From a virus: DNA of 32,374 nt. The DNA lies in IMG/VR virus record IMGVR_UViG_3300025018_000383; one strand, written 5' to 3'. Position 1 is the first letter of the stretch, and every line of letters starts with the position of its first letter. Of the stretch, positions 2,925 to 31,792 are shown one piece after another. The notes under the pieces are model-generated. The model saw only the letters and a program-made list of their open reading frames with translations, made no database searches and was not told where the DNA came from. Both the position numbers and the translations under genes were made by a program.

Positions 2925-5101
2925 TACGTCGCAATCTCCAGGGTCACGGCGGCGATTGTCGCTGGCAACGGCATGCTGCCGCTCAACCGCAGCCTGGCAC
3001 GTTCCGCCCGTCTGCCGCCAGACCAGCCCAAGGTTCGCACCCGCCACTCACCGCTCCAGGGTGTAATCGGGCTGTCGAACTGATCCACATCGGTGCGCGG
3101 AAAGTTCAAATCTTGGCCGTTGACCGCACAGCCCGCGGTATTCCAGAAGCGGATGGTTGCGTTGACAATGCGATGCCGGCGCCCGGCCAGCGGCCGATAA
3201 CCGCCCTGCGCCACCGGCATTAGCAGAATTTCCCATGTCCGGGGAAAGCCTATGTCCAGCGCACTCACTTCCTCAGGCAGGGTGACGGCGCCGGCGACGA
3301 TCGTCGCATTGCCAAGAAATCTGCCGTCACCGACCAGCTGCACTGTTTCGCCATCCAACAGGCTCAAGCCGGCCCAGTTGGCCGTCGGCGCGCCCGCGGT
3401 CTGGCGGATGGCGCCAGACAAGTTCAGGCCCTCCACCTCTTTTTCCAAAAAGATCGTCGGCTGGCCGGCGATGTCACGCTCTGTCAACAGGTACAACGCT
3501 TCGCCGACCACGGCCACGTCCAAAATGGTGCCATCGATGGTCCATTGCGTCCAACCGGCCACTTGTTGACTGCGCTTGGAATTCAGGACGGCCATGGTTC
3601 CATCGCCATTCAAGACGAACAAATGCGTCGCGTTCGCTGCTGCGTCGCCACGGCGCACCGCGATCCGGAACGGCCCCGTGATCAAGCTGCGCGCCAGGAT
3701 CGACAAATCCTGCTGGTCATAGCCGGACAAGGCATCGTTATAGACGACCTCGTTAATGCCAACTGCCGTGCCGCCATCACTGGCCTGGACAAAGGCCATG
3801 GCCCGTTCCAAGGCTACCGGCTGCACGGCCGCGGCGGGCTGGTCGATATCCTTGCGCGGGATGAAGGTGTTCGGCGTGATGCCTGCGCCCGTGCGTTGAA
3901 CGAACACGCCGTTGTCCGTCAGCAAGAACAGTCCGTCGCCGCTGAACAGCGAATGAATGTTCGACACCTCATTGCCACCCAGCTCTGCGGCAACGGCATC
4001 GGTATCTAGCAGGTCAAGCCCTACCTTAAAATCGTAAGGGTCGGCGATGGTAGAGCCGTCAATCCGGTTCGGTCGGTCGCGGTGGCCCGCCAAGTAAAGC
4101 CGGCCCTCGTGCAGTGCGCAGGCAGCTGGATAGCCGCGGCGCGCACTCCAAACAGGTTCTGTCAGACGCCGAAATTCCCAATTCCCGGCCGTGATCGTGT
4201 TGATGTTCTGAAACGGCTCTTGCACCGCGACACGTGCCACGGTGGTGGATACCACCTGCGTGATAATCGCCTCGCCTTGGTTGCCGCGGATGAAGGCGTC
4301 GACATCATCGTCAACGAAATAGGGCGCGCTCAGGGTGACAGTTACGGTTTCGCCCGCGGTTGCGCTGGGCGTCAAGTTCACTGGTGGCCCCAGGTAGCCA
4401 TCCATGCGGAACAGCCATGCACCCGGCACCATCGGGTTGGTATTGGGCCAGTCGCTGGTAACGTCGACGGTCACAACGGTGGGGCTGGTATAGCCAACTA
4501 CGCGGGCTTGCCCGGAATTGCCGTTGACGATGGCGCCCACATCGGCAGCGCGCCAAAAGTCGGCGCTGGCGGTCAGGGTAACGCCGCTGCCCGTAACGGC
4601 GCCAGGCGTCACCGTATAGGCCGGATAGGTTCGGGCAAACAGCACCTTGGGCACGTTGACAAAGGCAGTGACTGTCAGGCTCCAGGCGATATCACTTCCC
4701 TTGCGTTGCAGCGTGTAGGTCGGATAGCTGGCGTGTGTCACGAACATCGTGTCGCGCGACTGGGTCCAGATCAGCGACGGCACGTCAGCCGCAGCCCAGG
4801 GCGAGGCCAGGGTGGCGACCAGGGCATCGTCACGATAAATCTTTAGCGACAAATTCAGCCACACCAGCAGGTATTGCTGGGCGGCGGAAAAGCGAAACCG
4901 GGTGGTGCGCAGCGCGCCCGGAATGGTGGCGATAATTTCAGTGCCATTGGCGGCGCGGGCCATGCCGCGCGGATCCAAGGTGATGTTGCGTAGTACGCGG
5001 GCGCTGGCATAGAACGGCGCCACGTCTTCGCGGCCAGCCGCTTCATGGTCGATCTGGCCGGCTGTGAAGGAAAAATGCTGTTCGAAGCCACGGCGCGCCA
5101 T
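2924..5101 (-). CDS. Tail tubular protein B / nozzle-like protein (725 aa)
   Basis: Long ORF immediately after the 190-aa adaptor-like gene. The size and order match the T7 gp11-gp12 pair. Beta-rich composition. Assignment is by synteny, not by a recognised motif. Confidence 0.6.
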   Translation of the reverse strand: MARRGFEQHFSFTAGQIDHEAAGREDVAPFYASARVLRNITLDPRGMARAANGTEIIATIPGALRTTRFRFSAAQQYLLVWLNLSLKIYRDDALVATLASPWAAADVPSLIWTQSRDTMFVTHASYPTYTLQRKGSDIAWSLTVTAFVNVPKVLFARTYPAYTVTPGAVTGSGVTLTASADFWRAADVGAIVNGNSGQARVVGYTSPTVVTVDVTSDWPNTNPMVPGAWLFRMDGYLGPPVNLTPSATAGETVTVTLSAPYFVDDDVDAFIRGNQGEAIITQVVSTTVARVAVQEPFQNINTITAGNWEFRRLTEPVWSARRGYPAACALHEGRLYLAGHRDRPNRIDGSTIADPYDFKVGLDLLDTDAVAAELGGNEVSNIHSLFSGDGLFLLTDNGVFVQRTGAGITPNTFIPRKDIDQPAAAVQPVALERAMAFVQASDGGTAVGINEVVYNDALSGYDQQDLSILARSLITGPFRIAVRRGDAAANATHLFVLNGDGTMAVLNSKRSQQVAGWTQWTIDGTILDVAVVGEALYLLTERDIAGQPTIFLEKEVEGLNLSGAIRQTAGAPTANWAGLSLLDGETVQLVGDGRFLGNATIVAGAVTLPEEVSALDIGFPRTWEILLMPVAQGGYRPLAGRRHRIVNATIRFWNTAGCAVNGQDLNFPRTDVDQFDSPITPWSGEWRVRTLGWSGGRRAERARLRLSGSMPLPATIAAVTLEIAT

Positions 5102-5105
5102 CGGG

Positions 5106-5678
5106 CTAGCCTCTGGCGTCGATCAACGGAAACGACTGGATGACAATCGGCGTTGCCTGCTGGCTATCGATCCGCTTGGCGCGGCTCAGCTCAAGCTCGG
5201 CTTGCTGCAGGAAGGCGCCATAGCGCTGGTGATCTTCCGTCACCGCCATGCACAATTCGGCCCGAAGTTGCGCGCGCATCAGCGCCACGAAGTGGGGCGG
5301 CCAGATGGCCTCTGGCGCATCATAGACATAGCTCAGAATGGCCGGATCGGCATTGGTGTGCACGCGGCCCTCTGCAACGCGATAGGGCCAGCCGCGCCCG
5401 CGGTTCCGCTGGCCTCCCAGTGCAACTGCGTGCAGGAAGTCGGCCGGCAGCGCATAGGCGAAGTCGTAATCAGCAACCGGGATGGCCGCCAGCTTGGCCA
5501 ACTCCGCCTGTGCACTGGCAAAGCCCCAGCGATGCACGGTCAACATGGCCGATCGAACAAAGGGATAAAGCGCCCGCGCGGCCTCGGCGCCCGCGCCATC
5601 ATCCTCCAAAGAGGTGATGGGCGCGTCGCCTAGGGCCACTAAGGCCGCACTGACAATTTCGACGTCAGTCGCAGGCAT
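5106..5678 (-). CDS. Tail tubular protein A / head-tail adaptor-like protein (190 aa)
   Basis: The 190-aa size and its position (capsid, small gene, this gene, 725-aa gene) parallel T7 gp11 (196 aa). The N-terminus IVSAALVALGDAPITSLED...HRWGFA resembles podovirus adaptor N-termini as I remember them. Confidence 0.55.
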   Translation of the reverse strand: MPATDVEIVSAALVALGDAPITSLEDDGAGAEAARALYPFVRSAMLTVHRWGFASAQAELAKLAAIPVADYDFAYALPADFLHAVALGGQRNRGRGWPYRVAEGRVHTNADPAILSYVYDAPEAIWPPHFVALMRAQLRAELCMAVTEDHQRYGAFLQQAELELSRAKRIDSQQATPIVIQSFPLIDARG

Positions 5679-5679
5679 G

Positions 5680-5940
5680 TTAATCGGTGTTCACCGTGAC
5701 TGCGGTGGCGTTGGTCGTGTCGACGTTCACGCCGTCGTTCAGGTTGACCATCGCCAGGCCGTTGCCGTTGCTGCCGCGGATCAGCATGAAGTCTCCGACC
5801 GCCAGCTGGCTCATGGCCGCGTTGAAATAGCCGGTGGTGTCGATCGTGATCAGCGTATCCGTCTCGCTGGTATAGTGGAACATCCGCTTGCCGGGGCGAA
5901 TTCCGGCGACATGCTCAAGCGTCGATTGGGTGAAAGCCAT
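5680..5940 (-). CDS. Small head-module protein (86 aa), possible decoration/cement protein
   Basis: Internal ATG at 5940 is preceded by GGAGA at 8 nt spacing. The listed upstream extension (to 6186) overlaps the capsid gene in another frame. The stop abuts the next gene start. Confidence 0.6.
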   Translation of the reverse strand: MAFTQSTLEHVAGIRPGKRMFHYTSETDTLITIDTTGYFNAAMSQLAVGDFMLIRGSNGNGLAMVNLNDGVNVDTTNATAVTVNTD

Positions 5941-5961
5941 AAGGTTTGTCTCCAGATTGTT

Positions 5962-5980
5962 GGCGGCGCCAGGCGCCGCC
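5962..5980 (-). terminator. GC-rich stem-loop just downstream of the major capsid gene (possible attenuator or mRNA-stabilising hairpin; no U-tract)
   Basis: GGCGGCGCC-A-GGCGCCGCC is a perfect inverted repeat in the 62-nt gap between the capsid stop (6003) and the next start (5940). Confidence 0.35.
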
Positions 5981-6002
5981 GATGGTGTGAGCTCGTTCGG
6001 CG

Positions 6003-6839
6003 TTAGGCGATGACAATATCGTCCTTCAGGCGCAATTCCACGATGCCACGCGCATCGATCCCGACGGCACCCTGACTCAGTTTGCCATTGAACAGCCAGG
6101 CGTCTTTCAGCGGGATGAAGTCGATTTTCATGGTGACTTCCTTGCCGCTGGCGTGGCCGACCGCGGTTTGATGAAACATGAAACACTTGCGCGTGTTAGC
6201 AGCAGCCACTGGCAGGCCACTGTGGTGCAGCCAGATGGTATTGCGCCAACGCCGCGCCTCCATGTTCTTCAGCCACGGGTATTGGTCCCCGACATAGTCC
6301 GCGTTCGAAAATTCGGAGATATTCAACATTTCCGACCAGGCGTGCGGCGATAGCACCGCATACCGGTTGCCATCGTCCGGCAGATCATTCGCGTTCATGG
6401 CTTCGATTGCCTGCGCCGCCACCGCCTTCGTAAAGGCAGTCGTATAATCACCAACCACTGTGCCCCCGGCGGCTTCCAGGGCGGCGATGATAAGGGCGTC
6501 GGTTTTCCGTCCAAGCGCCCAGCTGGAGGCGTTCACGCGCACCATGCGCTCGTCAATGTTGGTTTTGATGGTGTCCAGGTCATCGACCAGGGTCGGGGCA
6601 TACCAGTCGCCCAGCGGGCACTCGACAGGCGCGTGGTCCAGATCTTGCACAGGCACGTCACCGTTACGGGTTTTCTGTGCCGCTTCGATCGTTCCAGTTT
6701 TCTGAAACGTGGTGGACGAGCCGATAACGCCGCTCTTGCGCCGGACCGCGTTGCGCAGCAGCGACCCCTGGCGCTGATAAGCCTGGTGCACTTCCGCCTC
6801 ATACCGGCGGATAAAGGCTTGATCGATATTTTCGGGCAT
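6003..6839 (-). CDS. Major capsid protein (278 aa, presumed HK97-fold)
   Basis: Position directly after the scaffold gene. The N-terminal pattern F-x3-Y-x3-V-x2-AYQ-x2-GS-LR and the overall layout match podovirus (BPP-1-type) capsid proteins as I recall them. Preceded by a long structured leader. Confidence 0.75.
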   Translation of the reverse strand: MPENIDQAFIRRYEAEVHQAYQRQGSLLRNAVRRKSGVIGSSTTFQKTGTIEAAQKTRNGDVPVQDLDHAPVECPLGDWYAPTLVDDLDTIKTNIDERMVRVNASSWALGRKTDALIIAALEAAGGTVVGDYTTAFTKAVAAQAIEAMNANDLPDDGNRYAVLSPHAWSEMLNISEFSNADYVGDQYPWLKNMEARRWRNTIWLHHSGLPVAAANTRKCFMFHQTAVGHASGKEVTMKIDFIPLKDAWLFNGKLSQGAVGIDARGIVELRLKDDIVIA

Positions 6840-14985: not shown

Positions 14986-16092
14986 CTAGGCGGCTCCCCC
15001 GGCGTTAGATGTGGTTGCATCGGGCGCCGCGAACGCTTGCAACCAGGCGTTGAAATCCTTGTAGGCCGGATCCGGCCTTGCAATAGCGACGTCGAGCCCC
15101 TGCCGCACCAGCCGTTGACTGGCGCTGCGCAGCGTCACGCGGGCCGGATGCTCCACCACTTGACCATCCGCGCGAATGATGGTCAGCGGATCATTGTCAG
15201 CGCCGATGATCACGCGACTGATGCCGGCTGGCAGTTGCAGGCGGGCAAGGCCACTGATCGTGCCGACGGCCGCCGCGCGGTGTTGCGGCCGCAGCAGCGC
15301 CATCGATAGCGCGTCCTCGATGCCCTCCGTCAGCAGCAGCGTCTCGCCAAGCGCGGCCTTGGACCAGGGCCGGCCCGTCGAGCCGCGGGACAGTGGGATG
15401 CACAGGCCGGCGGTGGCGCCCAACACCATCTTGGCCCTTTGCAGCCGCGCTTTGTGCCAGCTCGTCCCCTGCCCTGTCAGATAGGTGCGGTGCACCGCAC
15501 GGACGCGCCCGACGACATCGCACATCGCGGCCAGCATGGCCGGCTCCGGTCGTTTGGTCTCGGCGCAGTAAGTGTCCCATGCAAAGCGCAGCACGCTGGG
15601 CGGTCGCGGCAGCGCGCGGATGTCGATGCCGCGGCCCATCAAATACCACTCGGCGGGGCTGCCCGCTAATGGGTCGGCCGCATACCATATGGCGGCAGCC
15701 GTCTTGGCCCGATCTGCCTGCTGCCGATCATACTGGTCGCGGGCAGCTTGATCTTGCTGCTGGATCGCACGGCGGCGTTCGGGCGCCAGTGGTGCATCGT
15801 CTAGGCACAGCCTGCGCTTGGCCCAGCGTACCGCCTCGGCCTTGTTGCCTCCGTACAACGTGGCGGCAACAAGGTCCAGCATGTCGCCAGCCTCGTCGTT
15901 GGCCGCAAAGTTTTTCCACAACCCCTGCTTGCTGCCAGCACCACGATGCACGGACAGGCGGGTGCCGGCCTCACCTGCCAGTGAGCCTGCGGTCCATTCG
16001 TTGCCAGCGCGACAGGCGCCTGGCAACAGCTCTGGCACCAGGCTGTCCACCTGGGCATTCAGGTGCCGCGCGATCTCGGATATATCCATCAT
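14986..16092 (-). CDS. Toprim-domain DNA primase (368 aa)
   Basis: Toprim signature LLTEGIEDALS plus IIGADND. The N-terminal region resembles the P4-type primase N-domain but has no Cys-x2-Cys pairs. Confidence 0.75.
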   Translation of the reverse strand: MMDISEIARHLNAQVDSLVPELLPGACRAGNEWTAGSLAGEAGTRLSVHRGAGSKQGLWKNFAANDEAGDMLDLVAATLYGGNKAEAVRWAKRRLCLDDAPLAPERRRAIQQQDQAARDQYDRQQADRAKTAAAIWYAADPLAGSPAEWYLMGRGIDIRALPRPPSVLRFAWDTYCAETKRPEPAMLAAMCDVVGRVRAVHRTYLTGQGTSWHKARLQRAKMVLGATAGLCIPLSRGSTGRPWSKAALGETLLLTEGIEDALSMALLRPQHRAAAVGTISGLARLQLPAGISRVIIGADNDPLTIIRADGQVVEHPARVTLRSASQRLVRQGLDVAIARPDPAYKDFNAWLQAFAAPDATTSNAGGAA

Positions 16093-16099
16093 GCCGGTC

Positions 16100-16411
16100 T
16101 CATATTGCCAGCGGGCCAGGTGGGTGGGCCTCGTCCAGGCTGCCGCCGCCTAGCAGCGCCCGCCGACAAACGCGAGATTTTGTGGCGTAGCGGGCAGCAA
16201 GCCGCTGCGCCGCGATCGCACTCCGGCGCGCATGCATGCCTTGGGCATAGAGCTGATCGGCCAGCATGAGCCTAAATACTTGGTCCTGCGCCGTTGCAGA
16301 GTGCGTCGCCGCACGTGCCGCGTATACCGTCGCCATCTCGCTCCAAAACTCGGCGTGGTGGGTGATCCGGACTACCTTGGATTGCTGGTCGACCATTGGT
16401 GACGGCTCCAT
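16100..16411 (-). CDS. Hypothetical first gene of the leftward arm (98-103 aa)
   Basis: The ORF abuts the control region. The second ATG at 16396 (MVDQQSK) has GGAG 9 nt upstream and may be the true start. Confidence 0.5.
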   Translation of the reverse strand: MEPSPMVDQQSKVVRITHHAEFWSEMATVYAARAATHSATAQDQVFRLMLADQLYAQGMHARRSAIAAQRLAARYATKSRVCRRALLGGGSLDEAHPPGPLAI

Positions 16412-16604
16412 GCCGCGCTGCCGTAGCGCGCTATCCCTATTGATTGTCTCTGCGATAGGCGACTGTCAATGCACTTGCTGCCTGGCCTGGGGCAGCGTCA
16501 ACTGCGACATTGTGTCAACGGGAAAGAAAAGTGTTGCAAAAGGCAACATCCGATGCGATATTGTGATTGTCAACAACACGGGCCCCGCAAACGGAGACGG
16601 ACCA
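16412..16604. promoter_or_regulatory. Divergent control region with repeated operator-like elements
   Basis: Direct repeat GCGACATTGTGTCAAC (16504-16519) and GCGATATTGTGATTGTCAAC (16555-16574). Palindrome TGTTGC-aaaag-GCAACA (16532-16548). Inverted repeat CTGCC-n8-GGCAG (16478-16495). Four TTGAC(A/G) hexamers on the minus strand. Confidence 0.6.
16534..16562 (+). promoter_or_regulatory. Candidate sigma70-type rightward promoter TTGCAA-N17-GATATT
   Basis: -35 at 16534-16539 and -10 at 16557-16562, with exactly 17 nt between them. The -35 lies inside the TGTTGC/GCAACA palindrome and the -10 lies inside the second direct repeat. Confidence 0.35.
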
Positions 16605-17006
16605 ATGACTAGCACAATCACCTACGCCGACGGTTGGTTGACCGATAAAAACTTTAACCGGGCGAGCGTCGAGTACTTCGGATCACGCGCGAAAGCAGAA
16701 GCGGCTTTGCGGTCATTAAAGGATTGCCGCAATTGCACCAATTGCCGCTATTGTTCGGCCTGTTACCAATGTGTTGGCTGCTTCGGATGCTCCGGATGCA
16801 GCGATTGCAAAGACTGCGCCGGATGCGATTACTGCAACAGGTGCGCTCTCTGTATCCGGTGCATCTTTTGTCTCGGTTGCCGCCGTTGCACAGACTGCAC
16901 CAGGTGCGGCACCTGCAAGAATTGCGACCGCTGCGTTAATTGCCACGATCGCACGCGGTGCGCCGATTGCACCTATCTTTCCCAGCCCAAGGAGCAAGAC
17001 CAATGA
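16605..17006 (+). CDS. Cysteine-triplet-repeat protein (133 aa): a 40-aa N-terminal domain followed by (C-x-x)25 and two more in-phase Cys
   Basis: ATG at 16605 with GGAG 8 nt upstream. I verified the translation codon by codon: DC RNC TNC RYC SAC YQC VGC FGC SGC SDC KDC AGC DYC NRC ALC IRC IFC LGC RRC TDC TRC GTC KNC DRC VNC HDRTRC ADC. The stop overlaps the next ATG (ATGA). Confidence 0.75.
   Translation: MTSTITYADGWLTDKNFNRASVEYFGSRAKAEAALRSLKDCRNCTNCRYCSACYQCVGCFGCSGCSDCKDCAGCDYCNRCALCIRCIFCLGCRRCTDCTRCGTCKNCDRCVNCHDRTRCADCTYLSQPKEQDQ
16725..16970 (+). repeat. Degenerate 9-nt periodic coding repeat (TGY-N6)n
   Basis: Cys codons occur exactly every 9 nt from 16725 to 16943, then at 16959 and 16968 in the same phase. 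This also explains the spurious open frames on both strands here. Confidence 0.9.
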
Positions 17007-17494
17007 CCTACTACATCATCGAGACCCAATATGTCGGCGGCAACCGCGACACGGCCAGCCTCAACCGCCACACTGTCCAGATTTGCACGATGCCGGCCGC
17101 CGAGTATGGCGACGGCCAGCCAGTCACAAGCGGATGGTGCGGCGAGGATGCCGGCGTAGCGACATTTGCCCACGGCGAATACCAGACACTCGACGCGGCG
17201 CGGGATGCGGTTGAAGCTCTGTTTGAGGATATCGGAGAGGATGCATGCGCGTCCCAAGACAGGTCCGTGGCAGAGACCTACCGAGTGGGCAGGTACACCT
17301 TGAGCCAGATCGACACGGAAGCCTACATCAACGATGCGCTTGCTGAGCCATCGTCGGAGACGCTCACGGCCGAAACCCTGCTCGACATCGCCGCCATGAT
17401 TGTAGAGGCGGCGGCTGGGGACAACCTTGAACTGACCGGCACTCTCGCGATTTTGCAGCGGCGGTTAGCGGAAGCCAGCAGTGAGACCGAATAA
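17003..17494 (+). CDS. Hyperacidic, lysine-free protein (163 aa)
   Basis: ATG at 17003 overlaps the upstream TGA, with AGGAG 8 nt upstream. By hand count there are 12 D plus 17 E against 8 R and 0 K. Confidence 0.7.
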   Translation: MTYYIIETQYVGGNRDTASLNRHTVQICTMPAAEYGDGQPVTSGWCGEDAGVATFAHGEYQTLDAARDAVEALFEDIGEDACASQDRSVAETYRVGRYTLSQIDTEAYINDALAEPSSETLTAETLLDIAAMIVEAAAGDNLELTGTLAILQRRLAEASSETE

Positions 17495-17515
17495 CAAACT
17501 GGACGATTTGTGTTC

Positions 17516-17539
17516 CCGGCGAGCGGATGCGCTCGCCGG
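17516..17539 (+). promoter_or_regulatory. Perfect 10-bp GC-rich hairpin CCGGCGAGCG-gatg-CGCTCGCCGG between early genes
   Basis: Read directly. There is no following T-run, so it is not a canonical intrinsic terminator. Confidence 0.4.
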
Positions 17540-17559
17540 AGCAACAGAAAGGCGATGAA

Positions 17560-17781
17560 ATGACGAACCGAGATCCTGCCGCCCGGCTGAATGGCGCCGG
17601 GCACCTTTTGGAAGGCGAGCCCACGCTCCTGATCGCGCATCGGTTGGCGGTCGAAGACTATGTTCTGGCCATGCGGGTGAACGATTACAGCGGGGCCGAT
17701 GAAGCCGAAGAGGCAATCGGCTATATCGAGGGGCGGCTTCGAGAGCGGGGCGTGCCGTTTGCCCCATGGGTGCCGGAATGA
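17560..17781 (+). CDS. Small acidic protein (73 aa), unknown
   Basis: ATG at 17560 after AAAGG. The listed upstream start at 17527 lies inside the hairpin. The stop overlaps the next ATG (ATGA). Confidence 0.55.
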   Translation: MTNRDPAARLNGAGHLLEGEPTLLIAHRLAVEDYVLAMRVNDYSGADEAEEAIGYIEGRLRERGVPFAPWVPE

Positions 17782-18176
17782 CGATGGTCACACCAGCGGA
17801 AATCCGCGCCGCGCGCAAAGCCGCCGGGCTCACCCAGCAACAATTGGCCGATTTGCTGGGTTTTGAGCGGACACACATCACGTCTTGCGAGACGGGCCGG
17901 CGGACGCTCGACCAGTGTGCGAGGCTTCTTGTTCGCGGGCTCGAACGGTACGGCCTGAACTTTTTGCTGTCCCTTATGGATCATCCCGCGGCAGCTGAGC
18001 CGGGCAGACCTGGCGACGAATTGGTGTCCGCAACTTCCGGCGCTCGCGTCACGATCGACTCGCGGCCAGGATCATTTGTCATCCGCGATCAAACCGGCGC
18101 GCAGCTTGGCATCGCCGATCGGGGGCTTGCGGAGGCCATAGGATGCAGGCTGATTGCCTGGGCAGCCAGGAAATGA
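17778..18176 (+). CDS. XRE-family helix-turn-helix regulator (132 aa)
   Basis: Motif IRAARKAAGLTQQQLADLLGFERTHITSCETGRR is a classic HTH_3. A C-terminal domain of about 70 aa follows it. Candidate immunity or early regulator. Confidence 0.8.
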   Translation: MTMVTPAEIRAARKAAGLTQQQLADLLGFERTHITSCETGRRTLDQCARLLVRGLERYGLNFLLSLMDHPAAAEPGRPGDELVSATSGARVTIDSRPGSFVIRDQTGAQLGIADRGLAEAIGCRLIAWAARK

Positions 18177-23797: not shown

Positions 23798-26455
23798 CTA
23801 GGTTCCGTTGATGACGGTGAAAATCGGTCCGGTGGTGTCGATGCATCGGATCGCGGTGGTCTTGTACTGTGCTGGCGTGGTCGGGGTGCCGCCCTGGAAC
23901 GTGCCCCCCGCGCAGGCGAAGGTGGCAGGGCCAGCGCCGACCTGGGTAACCGTGCGGATATAGCCTACAGCAATGCCGGTGTTCGGCACGTTGACCGTTA
24001 CCGGGCTGGCGTTGTTCGAGATGATCTCGGCATACTGCTGGGTGCCCACCGTGCCCGTGCTGATTGATGTGGTGGTGTCCTCGATGACCGGCAGGTCTGG
24101 CAGGCCCAGGACTTTGCCGGTCCCCTTTGGCGCCAGGATCAAGTCGATATCCGCCGACGCGCCGACCGCGGCAACCGTAACGCCACCACCCACGGCTGGC
24201 GTTGTTCGCAGGTAGTTGGTGGCGCCGGCGACTGTGCGCGCTTCAAAATGGTTTGCGCCATCGCCCCCTTGGACCAGCAAGGCCGATAGGGCCGACGCAC
24301 CCAGAAAGGCGTGGCTTGTTCCGTTGTCCTGCAACCACATTTTTCGGGTGGTGCTGTCGGTCGAATTGATCTTGAACGGGATGCCGGCCGATGTCGCATT
24401 CGATGCGCTGTCGGCGCTAGCTGCCAGTTCATCGATTGCCGCTTTGACCTCGGTTGCGGCCAAGCCGCTAGTAGCGTTGTTGTACGTGATTTGCGGCGCC
24501 GATTGCCCCAATCCGTGCAATGTCACGGCACCGAAGGGCGCGTTCTCGACGATTGCGTTCACATCGTTCCCCGTGAACGTCCACCCGTCTCCTTGGCTGA
24601 CCTTGCTGCCGTCCTGCACCAGTTGCACTGGCCAGTGCATGCCCGTGAAGGACATGTAACGTCCTTCTAGGCTACTATTCCCCTGGACGATTGGGCCGCG
24701 ATCGTAGTTTTGCATCGTGATCGACCCCGGCAAGCTCGCGCCTTCGATATTGCTTTCTCGCGACACGTTAACCACCGTGCCGAAGCGCCCACCGGTTTGC
24801 GTGAAATCGGCATTCTGCCAATGCATGTCGCACTGCGTCAGGTAAATTACCTGTAAGTTTGTCGTAAATTCAGTATTGAACTTGATGCGCCCGGCGCCGG
24901 CGGCTGCCGTAAGTTTTGCAGACCCTCCATCGAAATTCATTACTTTGTTCGTAACATTTGGACCGATATCTATAATCATATCGTCCTCGCCATTTGCCTC
25001 GAGCAAAACCCGCGTACCTTGCACCACCATCACATCATTATTGTGCGCCGCCGCATCGATATGGCACTGGTTGATATGAATTTCTCCATCGCGTTGATCG
25101 TACCAGCGCTTGCCTGGTACGGGCACAAAGTGCAGGTCTTGGAAATGCACTCGCCCACCAGCCGTTTCGAAGCTAGCATTCACCGTCGGCATCGTCGCAT
25201 AAGATGGCCCGCGGATATCCATTTCCCCGGTCGGTAAGATGATGGGACTGGATGTATCAACGAATGGCCCGCCGTCCAGATATACAATCCTGGAATTGGC
25301 AGGATGACTTTCCAGGACCGCTCGCCAAGGGTCGGTTGCTGTAAGCGTGATCGCGCCGGCAGGATTGAAACCATAATGGTTCGGGTTAGGGTTTACCGGG
25401 ACAAACCCTAGCAGATCGGGAATGCCAGTCGCGCCGATGGAGGCTCGATAGGCATACCCATTTGCCCAGACGATCGCGCCGTTTGCCCAGGTCTGGCCGG
25501 CCACGATCGCCGCGACAAACTCCGCCCTGGTCGCAAAACCTACCGGCTTTGCCTGCACCACCACCTCGAATGCGGCGCCCGTGTACGTGAAGATTGCGAG
25601 AGCATCTTTTTGCAGCGCACCCTTTGGCGGGTTCTCCCCGGCCAATTGCACGGACTTTGCTGCCAGGCCACTCACCGCCAGCGTGACCGCGTCGCTGGTA
25701 TTGTCGAACGCCAGCCGTCCGACAAACATGTCACCAGCGACATAGGCCGCGTGGGCCGGCGCCGGCGTGAGTACGATCGCGTTGGCCGTTCCGGTCGCGG
25801 TGCCGCACCAGATCGGGCCGCCGCCACCGCCGCCGCCGCCGGGGATGGTAATCGTCGCCACGCCCGCGCCTGCGTCGGTCGCAGAAACACCCGCCCCAGT
25901 GAAGTTTAGGGTGGTGGCTGTGTTGACGGCAACGCCTTCGTCCTGGGTGGCAATGCCACCGCCACCGCCGCCGCCCACCGATGCCAGCATCACCGGCGCG
26001 CCGGTCTCGTCGAAGCCCAGCGCCTTGTTGGCCCGATCCACCGCCGCGGGCAGCACGCCTGGCTGATAGGCATCGCCTGGCGGGAACGCCAACATCTCAA
26101 GCTGCCGATGGCGCAGCTCTTGTTCGCGTGCCGTGATCCGATCCAGTTCCGTGTTCAGCGTGTTTGCGCCAAAGTCGCCTCCCACCGTGAAATCCGTCGT
26201 GCGAGCCGCCAATACCTCGCGCCGCAGCGTGACGGCCTCGCCGCCGATCATCCCCACGCCGAACGTGACAGTGCCCCCAGCATCGGCGCCGGCGCCCGCG
26301 ACGGTATAACCGCCCACCTGCAGGACGCCATTGACATAGACCATCAGGTCCGGCGCACTGAAGATCGGGAATGTGTAAGGGAATACCGTTTGCGCGGCAC
26401 TGGCGGTATAGTCCACCCGGGGCGACAGGTCGCCGATGATGATATGGGGTGCCAT
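23798..26455 (-). CDS. Tail fibre / tailspike (885 aa) with T7-type N-terminal adaptor domain, poly-Gly-flanked insert and beta-helix (depolymerase-like) region
   Basis: ATG at 26455 (MAPHIIIGDLSPRVDYTASAAQTVFPYTFPIF...) lies 2 nt after the upstream TAG. The listed 1082-aa version overlaps the preceding 843-aa CDS. The N-terminus resembles podovirus fibre N-domains. The middle has repetitive beta-helix-like segments. Confidence 0.75.
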   Translation of the reverse strand: MAPHIIIGDLSPRVDYTASAAQTVFPYTFPIFSAPDLMVYVNGVLQVGGYTVAGAGADAGGTVTFGVGMIGGEAVTLRREVLAARTTDFTVGGDFGANTLNTELDRITAREQELRHRQLEMLAFPPGDAYQPGVLPAAVDRANKALGFDETGAPVMLASVGGGGGGGIATQDEGVAVNTATTLNFTGAGVSATDAGAGVATITIPGGGGGGGGPIWCGTATGTANAIVLTPAPAHAAYVAGDMFVGRLAFDNTSDAVTLAVSGLAAKSVQLAGENPPKGALQKDALAIFTYTGAAFEVVVQAKPVGFATRAEFVAAIVAGQTWANGAIVWANGYAYRASIGATGIPDLLGFVPVNPNPNHYGFNPAGAITLTATDPWRAVLESHPANSRIVYLDGGPFVDTSSPIILPTGEMDIRGPSYATMPTVNASFETAGGRVHFQDLHFVPVPGKRWYDQRDGEIHINQCHIDAAAHNNDVMVVQGTRVLLEANGEDDMIIDIGPNVTNKVMNFDGGSAKLTAAAGAGRIKFNTEFTTNLQVIYLTQCDMHWQNADFTQTGGRFGTVVNVSRESNIEGASLPGSITMQNYDRGPIVQGNSSLEGRYMSFTGMHWPVQLVQDGSKVSQGDGWTFTGNDVNAIVENAPFGAVTLHGLGQSAPQITYNNATSGLAATEVKAAIDELAASADSASNATSAGIPFKINSTDSTTRKMWLQDNGTSHAFLGASALSALLVQGGDGANHFEARTVAGATNYLRTTPAVGGGVTVAAVGASADIDLILAPKGTGKVLGLPDLPVIEDTTTSISTGTVGTQQYAEIISNNASPVTVNVPNTGIAVGYIRTVTQVGAGPATFACAGGTFQGGTPTTPAQYKTTAIRCIDTTGPIFTVINGT

Positions 26456-26457
26456 CG

Positions 26458-28989
26458 CTAACGATCTCCGACAACGGCCAGTGGATTGGGGAATTGGTCC
26501 GGGCCTTCGCCGCGGAACAATTGACGGCGTGGCGACCACCAGTATTGCTGGCCGGTCTGTTTTTTCAGCCGCGCCAACTGCGTGCGGAACCGCTTGTCGG
26601 CCTCGGGGTCGGCCAGGCGCTGCAAGTTGTCCCAGACGACGCGCTCCATCGCCAGGCGCGACCACCACAGATTGGTCGGGTTGTAGCGGCTGAAATAGGC
26701 GACCGTCTCGCGCCCGATGTTGGTGTCCTTGCCCTGCACCGCCTCGATCGCGTTGCCAGCGGTCAGGGCAAGCGTATCCTGGGCCAGGCCAGCCACAGGC
26801 CCGGCGATCGTGGTGCTGAGGCCGCCGCCAAAACGGCTGGTGGCCGCATAGAGAAAATCGCCCAGAATGCCGATCCCGCCACCCTGCAACACGGCGGCGC
26901 CCCAAAACTCCAGCGTGATCATGTCGCGCGGTTGCCGGCCCTTGCTGATCTCCTTCAATTGGATGGCCAGACCACCTAGTAAGGTCATGCCAAAGGCGTA
27001 GGTCGACAGCGCCGCAACGCGGTCCTTCCAGTTGGTTTTTGACCACGCCTGCAAGATTGGGCCGTACATTTGCGACGTCACAAATCCCTTGTACATCGCC
27101 ATACTGCGCGCCACCTCTCCCACCACCGTGCCGGGCTTGGTGCCGCCCGTCAGCAGGGCGCGGCCGCGCACGCTGTGCGACGGCACTGCCAGTTCGGTCT
27201 CGCTTTGCAGCATCTCGCGCATGCGTGTCGCCAGCCGCTCAGCGTTGCCGTCGATGTCGGTTCTTGCTGCGATGTCGCGCGGCCGCAGAAATCGCCCGCC
27301 ATCGGCGTGGTGGATCGGCGTGCGACGGATCACGTCCCAGTCAGCGGCGCCCAGTCCATAACGGGCAAAGGCGTCCTGCATGCCGCCCGGCAGGTCCGCG
27401 AAGCTGTCCTCCGCCACCTCGGCCAGGCGGGCCAGATATTCCATGCCGAACGCCCACTTGTTCGTCTGCGTGAACCTGCTCAATAGCGACAGGCGCATCA
27501 CGCTATCGGCGATGCGGCGCGAGAATTCCGGGCCGGTGATTTCACCCATATAGCGGGCTTGAGCTGCGGCGGTTTCCGTCCAGCTTTCGGCGATCAAGCC
27601 CAGGCTGACCGCCAAGCGTTGGTCGCGCGCGCTGCCTGGCGCCAACAACTTCAGCGCTCGGCCGATCGCACGGCGTTGATTGAGGCCGTTCATGGCCGCA
27701 GCAAATCTGACGCTGTTCAGGTCGCTGACGCTCGACAAGAATGCTGCGCCTAACTGCACCGCCTGGAGGCTGTTGCGTGTCGCTGCCACGGTATTGGCAA
27801 GCGGCCCATTGGCAGCGATGCTGTCCCGCCCCGATTGGATGTCGAACATTCGCCGCGCCGTGTCGATCTGCCCGACAGCCCGATCCGTCGCGGCGCGCGT
27901 ACCGCCGCCAGCCTGGAAGTCGTCCATGGCCGCGCGCTTCCGGATGGACTGCGCCAGATGCTCGAACGTCACTCGCGGGTTCGGGCCGAACAACTCCAGC
28001 ATGGCGATATCCCGCGCCATGCCATGGATATGGCCTGTCATCACGTCGAAAGCAGAGCCGGACCGGCCGAAGGCATCGTGATATTCCTGCCAAGCGTCGG
28101 CGTCTGCGAACTTCAGAAACCGATGATCGCTATGACGCTTGGCCAATTGTGCGCCGGCCTGCCGGCCGCTGGGCGTTACAGTGTTCCAGCCCTCAGTGGC
28201 GATGGTCTGGTAAACGTCACGCAGTGCCTGTTCAATGCCCTCGCGCGTGAAATTTCGGCCGGTGCGGTTATCCCGCATCTGGTGCCAATCCAGACGGGGC
28301 CGTTGCAGCGTTTCAGTCGCCGGCTCCAACAGGAAATCCCGCCATGCCTGGAAGCCGGCCTTGGTGACAGCGACGGCGTCATGATGTTGCGGCAGGCCCC
28401 AATTCGGCAGATGGGCAATGTTGCCTCCGGCCCGGTTGAACCGCTGGCGCAACATTTCTGCCACCTGGTTCCAACTGTCGCCCAACTCACGGGCGTGTGG
28501 GTTGCCGCCGCGCTCACCAAACACGGCGCGCACGACCTCAATCAACTGCGGCTTATTGCGCGTCATCGCGAAGACATTGCGGGAATGGTCGGCCAGTAGA
28601 TCCACCAGCTGTTCGGTCGCCTCGGTCTCGATCGCCCGCTTGCGCATTTCGACATTGCTCGCAGCGTTGCCTTTGGCGGTCCGGTCCAGTATTGCCACCA
28701 GGCCGGCGCCCTCGTTGGGCGCACCGTTCAGCCCGCGGAAGTTCCGGACATCGGCATCGCGGGCGACTAGCGCGTGAACCGCCAGCAGTTTGACGCGGCG
28801 ATCTTCGATCATTTTGGCGCGCATCTGCTTGACGGTCGCAATGGTAGCCTCGGCATCCACCGCGCCGGCCGGATGGGTCGCGCGGAAGTTGCGGGCCATC
28901 TCATCATAGATGGCCATTGCTTCCTCGGCCCTGCCTTTTGGGATTTCCCCGTTATCCAAGGCCGTCTGGATGCAATCCCGCAAGCTCAT
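26458..28989 (-). CDS. Large internal virion / DNA-ejection protein (843 aa) with C-terminal hydrophobic segments
   Basis: ATGA overlap with the upstream gene. The C-terminal region has TM-like stretches (AALSTYAFGMTLLGGLAIQL, FWGAAVLQGGGIGILGDFLYA). It sits in the position of T7 gp16. Confidence 0.6.
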   Translation of the reverse strand: MSLRDCIQTALDNGEIPKGRAEEAMAIYDEMARNFRATHPAGAVDAEATIATVKQMRAKMIEDRRVKLLAVHALVARDADVRNFRGLNGAPNEGAGLVAILDRTAKGNAASNVEMRKRAIETEATEQLVDLLADHSRNVFAMTRNKPQLIEVVRAVFGERGGNPHARELGDSWNQVAEMLRQRFNRAGGNIAHLPNWGLPQHHDAVAVTKAGFQAWRDFLLEPATETLQRPRLDWHQMRDNRTGRNFTREGIEQALRDVYQTIATEGWNTVTPSGRQAGAQLAKRHSDHRFLKFADADAWQEYHDAFGRSGSAFDVMTGHIHGMARDIAMLELFGPNPRVTFEHLAQSIRKRAAMDDFQAGGGTRAATDRAVGQIDTARRMFDIQSGRDSIAANGPLANTVAATRNSLQAVQLGAAFLSSVSDLNSVRFAAAMNGLNQRRAIGRALKLLAPGSARDQRLAVSLGLIAESWTETAAAQARYMGEITGPEFSRRIADSVMRLSLLSRFTQTNKWAFGMEYLARLAEVAEDSFADLPGGMQDAFARYGLGAADWDVIRRTPIHHADGGRFLRPRDIAARTDIDGNAERLATRMREMLQSETELAVPSHSVRGRALLTGGTKPGTVVGEVARSMAMYKGFVTSQMYGPILQAWSKTNWKDRVAALSTYAFGMTLLGGLAIQLKEISKGRQPRDMITLEFWGAAVLQGGGIGILGDFLYAATSRFGGGLSTTIAGPVAGLAQDTLALTAGNAIEAVQGKDTNIGRETVAYFSRYNPTNLWWSRLAMERVVWDNLQRLADPEADKRFRTQLARLKKQTGQQYWWSPRRQLFRGEGPDQFPNPLAVVGDR

Positions 28990-29258
28990 GCATCACCGCC
29001 CAGTCTGGCGCGCAATCCGGCGGCCATCAGCTCGTCTTTGACCGCGTTGGCAAAGATGCTGAAGGGATAGGGCGATAGCCAGTCCGCTTCTGCTCCGGTC
29101 TTCTCAGCCCACAAGGCCGTGTGGAATACACAAACCCCGAATGCCGTCGGCGTCTGCTCCATCGCCTCCACCAGGTCCGCCATATCCCGCAGCTTGCGGG
29201 CGATACAAGCTCTGTCGCCCTCTGTTTCAACGGCGTGCAGTCTAACGATTTCGCTCAT
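28986..29258 (-). CDS. Hypothetical protein (90 aa) between two giant virion genes
   Basis: ATG at 29258 overlaps the upstream TGA (ATGA), and its own stop overlaps the next ATG. Confidence 0.5.
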   Translation of the reverse strand: MSEIVRLHAVETEGDRACIARKLRDMADLVEAMEQTPTAFGVCVFHTALWAEKTGAEADWLSPYPFSIFANAVKDELMAAGLRARLGGDA

Positions 29259-31792
29259 CCGCGTGTCCCTGTTTGGCAAATATCTAGCACGTCCAAAAAG
29301 TCTTGTTCCATGTCGCGTTCGTGCAGTAGGTCGGCAACGGTCCTGGTCTCGGTGACAGGCTCACCGTCTTCCCCGATGCGGGTTAATAAGGGGATTTCCA
29401 GGTCTTCGGGAAGGTCATTCAGCCTCGCCTCTAGGCTGGATAGCTGGGCCTGTTGGCCACGGCCCGCGGGCTCGCTGAACAGGTCCAGCGCGGCGGTTTC
29501 CGCCGGTGATGGTGCCGCCGTGTCGATCAGGTCGGGCGCGGCGGGATCGGCGGCGCCGCCGGTGGCGCCTGGCCTTGCTGGTTCTTCCACGCCCGCCAGC
29601 TGGCCCACCTGGCCCGCAGGTTCATCTGGGCCGATAGCTCTGCCATCTGTAAGCCGTGCAACATCGCCGTCTGCAATTGCGCGTCGGACAACTCGGGCGA
29701 ACTCTTTAACGGGAGTTTCATAGCGTCCAGTCTCCTTGGCTTGGCGTGCGGCCGCGTTCAGTGCGTCTGCCACCGGGCCGCGGCGGTTGGCGAGCCGTTG
29801 CAGCAATTCGGCAGCCACCGCTGCCTGGCCGGCGCGGTCGGCATTGCCGGCGGCCAGCGTATTGCCTGCCGCGGTCAAGGTGTCCTGGTTGCGGGCGACC
29901 GTGGCGAAAAGGCCCTTTTCCTGGCGCAATTGCGCAAGCGCGCGCGATAGCACTCGCGCTCGTTCGCGGAAGGCTGAGTCCGCTACTGCGATGGCGCCAA
30001 ACAGATCTTCAATGGTTTGGTCTGGGCCGCGGTTGTCGATGAATTGCCGGGCCAGCGCCTCTGCCTCGGCGATGGTTTCCAGCGGCTCTTGCGCGAACAG
30101 GCGCATCAGCGCCAATTGCAAGGCCGGGTCATCCGGCGCCAGCCGGGCAATCACCGCGGCGTGATCTTCCGGTACCAGCCTGTTGACCACCAGGTCGAAA
30201 CTTTCGTTGCTCAGGTGCGCCAGCGCCTGCCCGTGGCGCACGTTGGCGCTGTTGCGTGGAACACTGGCATCCAGCAGGTCAGGCCGTGCGCGCAACACCT
30301 TCGCCGCATCAACGGCGGTGCCGGTGCCCTCCGCCAGGTTTTTCATGGCGGCGCGCGCCATGGCTTCCGAGGCTGTCACGCCATCGACGGCGCGCAAGAC
30401 GAAGGCGTTGATCTTTGGTTGCTGGCCATCGGCCTGCGCCAAGATACGCTTGGCTAGCGCCAGACGCTGGTGGCCATCGACGATAAATGCCTGGCCGGCC
30501 TCATCGAGCCAGACAATGCCGGCGTTTGCGCGCTCGGCGTTCCATTGCCGCACGCCTTTCAGTCGCTCGGTCACGCCCTGGTCATCGCCGCCGGATTTGA
30601 ACTGGAACCGTTGGGCGTCGACTTGCAGTTCGTTCGGGTCGAAGGCCCGCACGCTGCCATTCAGCGTGCGCCAATCCTCACTTGCAGGGGCCGTCAGCGG
30701 CTGCGCGGCTGGCGCCCTGCCACGCCCTTGCAGCGCTTCATCCGCCTGCGCCAGCGCTGCATCCGGGTTGATGCCGCTAGCGCTTGCGGTCGGGCCGGTC
30801 GCCGGCACCGCGGCCTTTTGCACGCGCCGGCCTTCCTTCAGCCGTCGCAGGGCTTCCTCTGCACGGCTTACCACGGCGCGCAGGTGTTCTGTGGGTGGCA
30901 GGCGTTTCAACACGCGCACCATCTCTGTGTCGGTTAGGCCATTTGCGGCAGTGGCTGCGGCAGCGGCTTCGCCATCCGGCACCGGCTCACCACGCGCGCG
31001 GCGGTCCAGCACCAGCCTGATGGCGGGTGGAATGCCACGCACCGCACCCGTGAACGCGGCAGCGCCACCCGCGGCAGAGGCGGCATTCAGCAGAAAGTCG
31101 GCGGCGGTATAGTCGCGGCCCAGGTCTTCGTAATAGCCGGCCACCGTCGGCGCGCTGACCACCTCGATGCCCACGCCCAGCAGCGCCTCTTGGACCATGG
31201 CCCGGCCGATACTGATGCCGGCGGGGGCGCCAAACGCCAACATGGCAATGTTGGTAGGGTCTTCCATGGCGCCGGCCAGTCCACCAGCCATGCTGCCTAG
31301 CGCGCCAACCGTGGTGGAGGCGCTGCCGATCCGATCCAGCGTTGGCAATTCTTTCGCGACCGCGTCCAGCACGGCCTTGTCGAACGCTTCAGCGCTATCC
31401 GGGACGCCCTGCAGGGCCTGCGGATCGGCGGCGCGACGACGGGCGATTTCCGCCCAAATCCTGGCCTGCTCGCTTTCGCCCGACACGAGCGTGCCGGTGG
31501 TGCGGTCAATCTGCCACCCGCTTACGGCGTCCGCCCGCACTGGGTTGCGGAACGGCGGGACGCCTGGGTCGCGTTCGGCGTTCAGCATGTCCACCAGCGG
31601 ATCATAGGCTTCTCGTCGATTGGCGTCGCGCGACGACACATTGGCCAGCAGGGTCTGGCTGCGGCGTGATGCGGCGAAGTTTTCGACAAACCCCGTCGGC
31701 CGTTCGGCGAATGTTAGACCGCGGTCTAACGTCCGGTTGGCCAGGTTGTCATCGCCTTGTGCTGGTGCGGCGTAGAAGATGCCATCGCTCAT
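29255..31792 (-). CDS. Large virion-block protein (845 aa) with a central ParB/Srx-like domain
   Basis: Residues about 380-500 read FDPNELQVDAQRFQFKSGGDDQGVTERLKGVRQWN...GIVWLDEAGQAFIVDGHQRLALAKRI (DGHQR at nt 30466-30480). Hydrophobic Gly/Ala segments at about aa 155-255. ATGA overlaps at both ends. Confidence 0.65.
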   Translation of the reverse strand: MSDGIFYAAPAQGDDNLANRTLDRGLTFAERPTGFVENFAASRRSQTLLANVSSRDANRREAYDPLVDMLNAERDPGVPPFRNPVRADAVSGWQIDRTTGTLVSGESEQARIWAEIARRRAADPQALQGVPDSAEAFDKAVLDAVAKELPTLDRIGSASTTVGALGSMAGGLAGAMEDPTNIAMLAFGAPAGISIGRAMVQEALLGVGIEVVSAPTVAGYYEDLGRDYTAADFLLNAASAAGGAAAFTGAVRGIPPAIRLVLDRRARGEPVPDGEAAAAATAANGLTDTEMVRVLKRLPPTEHLRAVVSRAEEALRRLKEGRRVQKAAVPATGPTASASGINPDAALAQADEALQGRGRAPAAQPLTAPASEDWRTLNGSVRAFDPNELQVDAQRFQFKSGGDDQGVTERLKGVRQWNAERANAGIVWLDEAGQAFIVDGHQRLALAKRILAQADGQQPKINAFVLRAVDGVTASEAMARAAMKNLAEGTGTAVDAAKVLRARPDLLDASVPRNSANVRHGQALAHLSNESFDLVVNRLVPEDHAAVIARLAPDDPALQLALMRLFAQEPLETIAEAEALARQFIDNRGPDQTIEDLFGAIAVADSAFRERARVLSRALAQLRQEKGLFATVARNQDTLTAAGNTLAAGNADRAGQAAVAAELLQRLANRRGPVADALNAAARQAKETGRYETPVKEFARVVRRAIADGDVARLTDGRAIGPDEPAGQVGQLAGVEEPARPGATGGAADPAAPDLIDTAAPSPAETAALDLFSEPAGRGQQAQLSSLEARLNDLPEDLEIPLLTRIGEDGEPVTETRTVADLLHERDMEQDFLDVLDICQTGTRG

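Follow-up and report, generated by a model that had tools for sequence, protein, structure and literature searches.

A cysteine at every third residue: a phage protein of the uncharacterised family PHROG 15341 and a tentative metal-thiolate reading of its array

What kind of protein places a cysteine at every third residue over most of its length, and what could a phage do with it? This question is raised by the open reading frame (ORF) at positions 16605-17006, plus strand, of the IMG/VR virus record IMGVR_UViG_3300025018_000383, a stretch of 32,374 nucleotides (nt) that is called the window in what follows. A first-pass annotation, made from the letters of the window without database searches, had described the cysteine array and recognised no family for it. 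The follow-up analysis gives answers of different strength. By homology, the ORF is a genuine phage gene read in its correct frame, and its period-3 cysteine lattice, conserved as it is across relatives, is a selected feature of the protein. The product is, as far as the sequence tells, a new and C-terminally truncated member, "cap plus array only", of a family that is catalogued as PHROG 15341 and unstudied. What the array does is a matter of tentative interpretation: a cytoplasmic, early-expressed metal-thiolate ladder or solenoid is the best guess, held at a probability of roughly 40%. The gene and the parts of its product are as follows.

16605..17006, plus strand: coding sequence of the Cys-x-x array protein, 133 amino acids (aa) plus stop; PHROG 15341 member, N-terminal profile match of 74 bits, E=1.7e-22
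16605..16724, plus strand: predicted N-terminal alpha/beta domain, aa 1-40, which together with the opening triplets C-R-N-C-T-N-C makes up the conserved family cap (AlphaFold2 (AF2) predicted local distance difference test (pLDDT) of 91-97 over residues 1-50)
16725..16949, plus strand: 25 uninterrupted C-x-x triplets, aa 41-115, from the translation
16950..16976, plus strand: in-phase break R-T-R (aa 116-118), then C-A-D and C-T-Y (aa 119-124), from the translation
16977..17003, plus strand: short polar tail LSQPKEQDQ, without a C-terminal domain, from the translation and a negative C-terminal profile search

Read in order, the translated product consists of MTSTITYADGWLTDKNFNRASVEYFGSRAKAEAALRSLKD (the N-terminal part), the 25 triplets, RTR CAD CTY and the polar tail. 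The first half of the triplets is CRN CTN CRY CSA CYQ CVG CFG CSG CSD CKD CAG CDY, and the remainder is CNR CAL CIR CIF CLG CRR CTD CTR CGT CKN CDR CVN CHD. Translation bears out the count given in the first-pass annotation, namely C-x-x exactly 25 times, a break and two further in-phase cysteines: the cysteines stand at residues 41, 44 and so on to 113, followed by C119 and C122, which makes 27 cysteines in 28 triplets and a spacing of 3 throughout, with a single exception of 6. The placement of the cysteine codons from 16725 to 16943 was likewise correct (first codon at 16725, 25th at 16941-16943; 22 TGC and 5 TGT). Within this array, position 2 of the triplet is fully mixed, and position 3 is G, R, N or D in 18 of the 25 triplets. 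When all six frames of the 32,374 nt are read, the runner-up C-x-x run has 3 triplets, and in 100,000 residue shuffles of the 133-aa protein the longest run was 9. Since Tandem Repeats Finder shows in the array DNA just two short 9-nt patches, of 3.4 and 2.3 copies, the array DNA is not a recent tandem duplication, and the period-3 pattern is maintained at the protein level.

The frame of the cysteine ORF needed checking, because this DNA holds four more open frames, of 47-147 aa. Over its first 45 residues it has homology to a conserved domain that hundreds of proteins contain, and the same architecture of a cap followed by an array occurs in AT-rich lytic Campylobacter phages (CP220 gp032, with 27 triplets; vB_CjeM_WX1_0155, with 41 cysteines in runs of 24, 14 and 3 triplets), while the GC content of the window is 63%. 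A DNA-composition artefact is excluded because the cysteine frame persists across this shift in base composition. It had been proposed at the outset that homologues lacking conserved cysteines would point to low complexity; the opposite was found, the lattice being kept in hundreds of relatives, those of the AT-rich Campylobacter phages included. The idea that no real protein is made here, the ORF being a low-complexity artefact or the wrong frame, could draw on the four competing ORFs, on two near-identical contigs where the ORF was skipped and on a Flavobacterium phage relative annotated in another frame; given the N-terminal homology, the conserved cysteine frame, the good spacing of the ribosome-binding site and the absence of a tandem repeat, it is effectively refuted.

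The statement that the protein belongs to no recognised family stands for characterised families and falls for relatives as such. Scans of the window protein, its neighbour and several relatives against Pfam, NCBIfam and PADLOC gave only noise, searches of the PDB by sequence and by profile returned nothing significant, and a literature search found no paper on a Cys-x-x phage family or on phrog_15341. The window protein does match PHROG 15341 (function unknown) with E=3.9e-19, its residues 8-123 aligning to positions 4-119 of a 276-position profile, and on this sequence evidence that uncharacterised group is the only family to which it belongs. An N-terminal profile built from 120 members and searched against the six-frame window recovers the ORF with 74.4 bits (E=1.7e-22). 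In the wider profile search at least 658 proteins were found at E<=1e-3; the few that have a source name are all labelled "hypothetical protein", and no Pfam domain occurs among them. With the N-terminal domain only as the profile, a search of 1.84 billion representatives gave 396 clusters at 50% identity, 195 of them at E<=1e-10. A scan of genome contigs queried by the window protein alone gave no match, and a tighter alignment gave matches to prophage-like loci of Kaistia, Phyllobacterium, Hyphomicrobiaceae, Rhodospirillaceae/Rhodospirillales, Paracoccaceae, Terriglobales/Acidobacteriaceae, Granulicella, Rhodanobacter, Peribacteria and Sulfurimonas. The bearers of the family are phages and prophages of Alphaproteobacteria, Acidobacteria, Rhodanobacter, Peribacteria and Sulfurimonas, together with the lytic Campylobacter phages, and their hosts cover at least five phyla. 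Several Eucampyvirinae genomes (among WX1, CP21, F379, CP20 and CPt10) show two to three separate matching places each, which may be paralogues of the cysteine-array gene within one lytic phage.

Members of the family are built from three parts, of which the first is what defines it. This is an N-terminal domain of about 45 aa that ends in C-x-N-C-x-N-C, with the consensus W-x-x-D-x-N-G-N-[KR]-x-S-V-E-Y-F-G-S-x-E-A-A-x-x-A-L-D-S-L-K-x-C-x-N-C-x-N-C; the window protein matches its end as ...SLKD-CRN-CTN-C.... Invariant or near-invariant residues are D14, N18, G26, A31, L35, L38, C41, N43, C44, N46 and C47, the last five being invariant in alignments A1, A2 and A5. The second part is the C-x-x array, of 3 to 41 triplets with a median of 15 among 263 proteins analysed. 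A longer case is the ORF at 4479-5414 of L027 (IMGVR_UViG_3300031673_001409), with 87 cysteines in 291 aa and strict runs of 47 and 38 triplets, mainly C-K-D, C-D-G and C-E-D; at its degenerate N-terminus, IKD is repeated five times and followed by ENGN.

The third part is variable, with at least five C-terminal arrangements after one and the same N-terminal-plus-array module. Commonest among these is a helical domain, roughly 100 aa long and marked by the motif WHTCxTTHCRAGW, which is carried by the best-scoring members; it is present in just 24 of 145 representatives of the N-terminal profile and is missing in the Campylobacter phage members. Other C-termini are a "SDGYxF...HAGCRxF...HW" domain, an "IGCEDHTVVEW" domain, an extension of about 310 aa in which no domain is recognisable, and, where the module is duplicated, a hydrophobic tail; the protein P0122 carries the module twice. 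In P0125, P0155, P0161 and the ORF at 4710-5534 of L023 the C-terminal domains read "SDGYxF...IHAGCRxF...A..HW" or "LKIGCEDHTVVEW", neither of which is in Pfam. In the window protein, as in the Campylobacter phage members, no C-terminal domain of any sort follows the array. In comparison with PHROG 15341, the last 150 or so profile positions, those with the WHTCxTTHCRAGW domain, are missing from the window protein, and no frame of the window yields a match to a profile of the family C-terminal domain (best E=0.36). That the N-terminal domain defines a family had escaped the first-pass annotation.

Across the family the repeat follows rules that go beyond the cysteine itself. In 4,101 triplets from 266 proteins, position 1 is cysteine, invariant over thousands of triplets. 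Position 2 is Ser in 53% and otherwise almost anything, and position 3 is D (28%), G (21%), N (16%) or R (14%), so that D, G and N together make up 65%. No other residues enter left-handed turn conformations as readily as these three. The two variable positions differ sharply: Gly accounts for 0.4% at position 2 against 20.5% at position 3, and Ile, Val, Leu and Thr for 3.1-7.8% each at position 2 against 0.1-0.8% each at position 3, while Pro is nearly absent from both (0.2% and 0.0%, respectively). Breaks in the array also keep to the period, as 65 of the 93 tabulated are exactly one triplet (3 aa) long and the majority of the others are multiples of 3; where a cysteine is lost in a one-triplet break, it is replaced by Ser in 39 of the 65 cases. 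The repeat is structured rather than of low complexity, with its register held across breaks. No preferred repeat number modulo 3 or 4 was found.

Structure prediction, carried out with AF2 on an alignment of 122 sequences, gives a well-defined beginning to the molecule. Residues 1-50 are predicted with pLDDT 91-97 as three short strands and two helices, and the first 6-7 triplets are packed confidently on this N-terminal domain, with pLDDT of 94 and then 81 (the latter for residues 51-60). In the model, DSSP assigns an isolated beta-bridge to residues 39, 42, 45 and so on to 63, that is, to position 2 of the triplets, and the bridge register begins already at L38-K39-D40. The full-length relative P0013 gives a like bridge pattern and a low-confidence array, followed by a C-terminal domain at pLDDT 92-98. 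When both AF2 models were compared with the PDB and BFVD by Foldseek, the only match was to another uncharacterised Campylobacter phage protein.

On this basis the preferred interpretation may be set out. There is no hydrophobic N-terminus, signal peptide or transmembrane segment in the 133-aa sequence; therefore the protein should be cytoplasmic, and in a cytoplasmic protein metal ligation is likelier than disulfides. Cysteines spaced as CxxC or CxxCxxC are classical metal chelators. The N-terminal domain would cap or nucleate a continuous period-3 ladder or narrow solenoid, in which position 2 would face the solvent, position 3 would form the turn, and the cysteines of all triplets would line one side or the lumen and serve as thiolate ligands. 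The cohesion of the array would come from bound Zn, Fe or Cu, and with four cysteines per metal the 27 of the window protein could provide about 6-7 sites. Such an array might be a metal sink whose capacity can be tuned, or else a stiff rod, stapled by metal, on which the N-terminal domain and, in most relatives, one of several alternative C-terminal domains are displayed; in either case it would act early in infection or induction. A bolder version, decidedly unlikely as it stands, would have the array form a new fold: an ultra-narrow beta-solenoid or ladder with three-residue sides and the N-terminal domain as its cap. Cysteine thiolates stacked along its lumen would bind metal ions in a row, giving a metal-thiolate wire in a protein sheath, of 3 to about 87 rungs and of genetically tunable length, which phages from many phyla would use early in infection as a metal sink or as a rigid rod with interchangeable effector domains.

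Several observations weigh against the metal-thiolate ladder. The AF2 models contain no ligands; beyond residue 60 the pLDDT is 40-51, so that most of the array is of low confidence; and the putative ladder or narrow solenoid geometry is deduced from the DSSP bridge string. Weak profile similarities in the PDB, confined to the array (RING, SWIM and CXXC zinc fingers, and the Tenebrio molitor antifreeze protein (TmAFP) 1ezg, with E between 0.03 and 5), are non-significant. The substitutes for cysteine are never His or Asp, the alternative ligands. No super-period, of 3 or 4 triplets per turn, was detected. No metal-homeostasis gene was found linked to the family, and a metal sink or rod has no evident benefit for a phage.

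Among known metal-binding proteins, the Cys4 zinc modules (the DnaJ Cys-rich, CXXC-type and RING domains) and the metallothioneins come closest in their high cysteine content and their CxxC or CxxCxxC spacing. However, the zinc modules are short, with a fixed number of ligands and irregular spacers, and neither they nor the metallothioneins have an open-ended array of strict period 3; membership of the DnaJ, CXXC or RING type fails, with no Pfam match at E<=10. Metallothioneins are built of CxC and CC clusters without a folded cap domain, whereas the window protein has CxxC spacing only; here too membership fails, as there is no Pfam or NCBIfam match and a folded N-terminal domain free of this cysteine pattern is present. 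The "cysteine-rich repeats" of Daugavet (PMC7379824; bioRxiv 2026.06.07.730663) are eukaryotic modules of about 30 aa and are unrelated. The first-pass annotation had listed cysteine-rich families with other spacings, and all of those compared do fail; the list had left out the heterocycloanthracins, which are considered below.

With regard to when the protein may act, the gene of the relatives lies among small early or accessory genes wherever the neighbourhood is readable. In L004 it follows the gene of an HTH-S24 repressor, with RecT, HNH and methylase genes nearby; in a Granulicella prophage (L005) it adjoins CI/Cro-like regulators; in L018 it is near PD-(D/E)XK, AAA_24 and methylase genes; and in Campylobacter phage WX1 it is near a helicase and a metallophosphoesterase, with a radical S-adenosylmethionine (SAM) gene two genes downstream. 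These non-structural surroundings agree with the earlier proposal of an early rather than a virion gene. No conserved neighbour of the family was found, and no YcaO, thiazole/oxazole-modified microcin (TOMM), lanthipeptide or radical-SAM enzyme is present in the Pfam-annotated flanks of five temperate relatives. On a 194-kb Logan contig (L019), five tandem paralogous DUF6197 genes (5002-6768) lie directly upstream of the member P0116; kinship of DUF6197 with the family C-terminal domain was rejected, with an hhalign probability of 0.15%.

In the window itself, the surroundings of the gene comprise the following features.

16412..16604, no strand assigned: divergent intergenic region, probable promoter/operator, between the ORF 16100-16411 (minus strand) and the ORF from 16605 (plus strand)
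16593..16596, plus strand: GGAG, Shine-Dalgarno-like, 8 nt before the ATG, read off the sequence
17003..17494, plus strand: downstream acidic ORF, 163 aa, with an ATGA overlap at 17003-17006

The good Shine-Dalgarno sequence reported before is accordingly this GGAG, and the description of the gene as the first of the rightward arm, beside an operator region, also holds: the upstream gene at 16100-16411 is divergent, and the 193 nt between the two bear repeats. Direct repeats 51 nt apart, GGCAGCGTCAACTGCGACATTGTG (16491-16514) and GGCAACATCCGATGCGATATTGTG (16542-16565), are accompanied by three further copies of TGATTGTC/GAYTGTCAA, the repeat zone spanning 16441-16573; in sequence they resemble the operators of a phage regulator. 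A simple scan of the intergenic region found no sigma-70 consensus promoter. The 163-aa protein downstream was also described correctly as to its overlap and its acidity (isoelectric point (pI) 4.05; 29 D+E against 8 K+R), but not as a conserved partner: it is absent beside family members at 17 other loci, has no match in Pfam, PHROG, NCBIfam or PADLOC, and its single homologue, at 99% identity, comes from the same phage type. This ATGA-coupled neighbour is restricted to the present phage.

The genes of the window include a T7-type portal (PF12236, E=4e-54), a T7-type scaffold, a capsid protein (PF19821), a DUF7146-Toprim primase, a P-loop protein, an XRE regulator, an ASCH protein and a tyrosine integrase, and its portal is distantly related to the portals of 32-35 kb temperate podophages of Pelagibacter, Methylophilales and Vibrio. 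Because of this gene content and these portal relatives, the window is classed as a temperate T7-like podophage or prophage. The cysteine gene is the first of a plus-strand operon that also holds the regulator and the integrase. The window has no tRNA gene, tRNA-Cys included, and a Pfam scan of 32 window ORFs found no YcaO, dehydrogenase or scaffold of the TOMM type, and no lanthipeptide-type (Lan) or radical-SAM domain. Three very large minus-strand ORFs (23798-27046, 26458-28989 and 29255-31792) are without a Pfam match.

Other explanations of the array have been weighed against this background. It could be a redox-active or disulfide-stapled rod, either a narrow beta-helix like that of TmAFP or a thiol buffer, a sponge for oxidants and electrophiles, or a redox switch. 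TmAFP is a Cys-periodic, Ser/Thr-rich and very narrow repeat, and 1ezg is the best PDB match in the single-sequence search (E=2.3) and recurs in the profile search (E=0.38), though both values are non-significant; the preference for Ser in place of Cys, which suggests that size and packing count, and the AF2 beta-bridges at every third residue would suit such a rod as well. However, TmAFP is a secreted, disulfide-bonded, right-handed beta-helix with a 12-residue unit and a cysteine at every 6th residue, whereas the window protein has period 3 and, lacking a signal peptide or transmembrane segment, would reside in the reducing cytoplasm. A beta-helix of the TmAFP type was rejected, since identity is not raised between triplets four apart and there is neither a signal peptide nor a Foldseek match, and the broader redox rod is considered unlikely. 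Similar doubt attaches to the proposal that the array is a spacer or scaffold, a linker of variable length or a self-association element, possibly of higher-order assemblies, whose chemistry would be secondary. The range in repeat number from 3 to about 87, the at least five C-terminal arrangements and the doubled module of P0122 all fit a spacer, but the invariance of cysteine over thousands of triplets is far beyond what a spacer needs, and the window and Campylobacter versions keep 25-41 triplets with no C-terminal domain to be spaced.

A further possibility, very unlikely on present evidence, is that of a precursor of the ribosomally synthesised and post-translationally modified peptide (RiPP) type, in which the N-terminal part would be a leader and a TOMM cyclodehydratase or a radical-SAM enzyme, provided by the host or encoded at another place, would recognise it and make thiazoles or thioethers from the cysteine array. 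The model here is the published heterocycloanthracin family, TOMM precursors with a conserved leader and strain-variable Cys-Xaa-Xaa repeats, which can sit far from their maturation genes (PMC2674419). Heterocycloanthracin/sonorensin (TIGR03601; Haft 2009, PMC2674419) shares with the phage family a conserved N-terminal region, a variable number of Cys-Xaa-Xaa units and the property of being easily missed by gene callers; TIGR03601 is the sole NCBIfam match of the window protein, and a radical-SAM gene lies near the WX1 relative, as mentioned above. The match is nevertheless one of 9.1 bits (E=1.9) against a curated cutoff of 35 bits. The heterocycloanthracin precursors have 13 cysteines, occasional 3-residue spacers and Gly-rich triplets, are encoded on Bacillus chromosomes and co-occur with a cyclodehydratase, a dehydrogenase and a scaffold, whereas the phage family has 25-87 strict triplets, is phage-borne, often has a folded domain after the array, and showed no maturation genes among the 32 window ORFs or in the flanks of the five relatives. 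Membership of TIGR03601 therefore fails, on the sub-cutoff score, the lack of maturation genes among the ORFs and flanks scanned, the folded N-terminal domain and the folded domain after the array in the best-scoring members. Against a RiPP in general speak the confidently folded N-terminal part, the 100-aa folded domain that follows the array in the best-scoring members and does not resemble a core peptide, and a spread over at least five host phyla, which makes dependence on a host enzyme less likely. Finally, the 27 cysteine codons might act as a translational sensor, tying translation to charged tRNA-Cys or host sulfur, with the ATGA overlap gating the downstream genes. That overlap and the first place in the operon are compatible with such a role, but the conserved folded N-terminal and C-terminal domains, a downstream gene that is not conserved with the family, position 3 preferences that a codon sensor would not need and the absence of a tRNA gene from the window make it extremely improbable. 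The probability that remains is left to something not yet conceived.

The metal-thiolate ladder would, if true, place the protein among Cys-rich metal-binding proteins and give it an early phage function so far unrecognised. Should either metal binding or a defined period-3 structure prove real, hundreds of phage lineages from at least five bacterial phyla would share a repeat architecture that neither Pfam nor the PDB contains. An array whose length is set by repeat number alone bears on phage biology, metalloprotein chemistry and protein design. The family is also systematically under-annotated, and a proper family model would correct many annotations.

Two sets of observations illustrate this last point. 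The metagenome contigs L021 and L022 are 99.5% identical to window positions 15873-17903 and 16582-17740, respectively, and carry an identical cysteine-array ORF, yet the gene callers of these assemblies called no gene there; judging by such skipped ORFs, the family is probably under-represented in protein databases. These are also the sole close relatives of the window gene and, with zero substitutions inside the ORF, they are uninformative for the ratio of nonsynonymous to synonymous substitution rates (dN/dS). In Flavobacterium phage FL-1 (KY421186.2, about 26455-27159; L003 3716-4420), the coding sequence APZ82901.1 was deposited in the wrong frame, as (APIAPV)n. The family-type ORF lies in another frame and reads (CS[DGR])n followed by the family C-terminal motif, which ends abruptly after "WHSCETT", an end that suggests a frameshift or a sequencing error.

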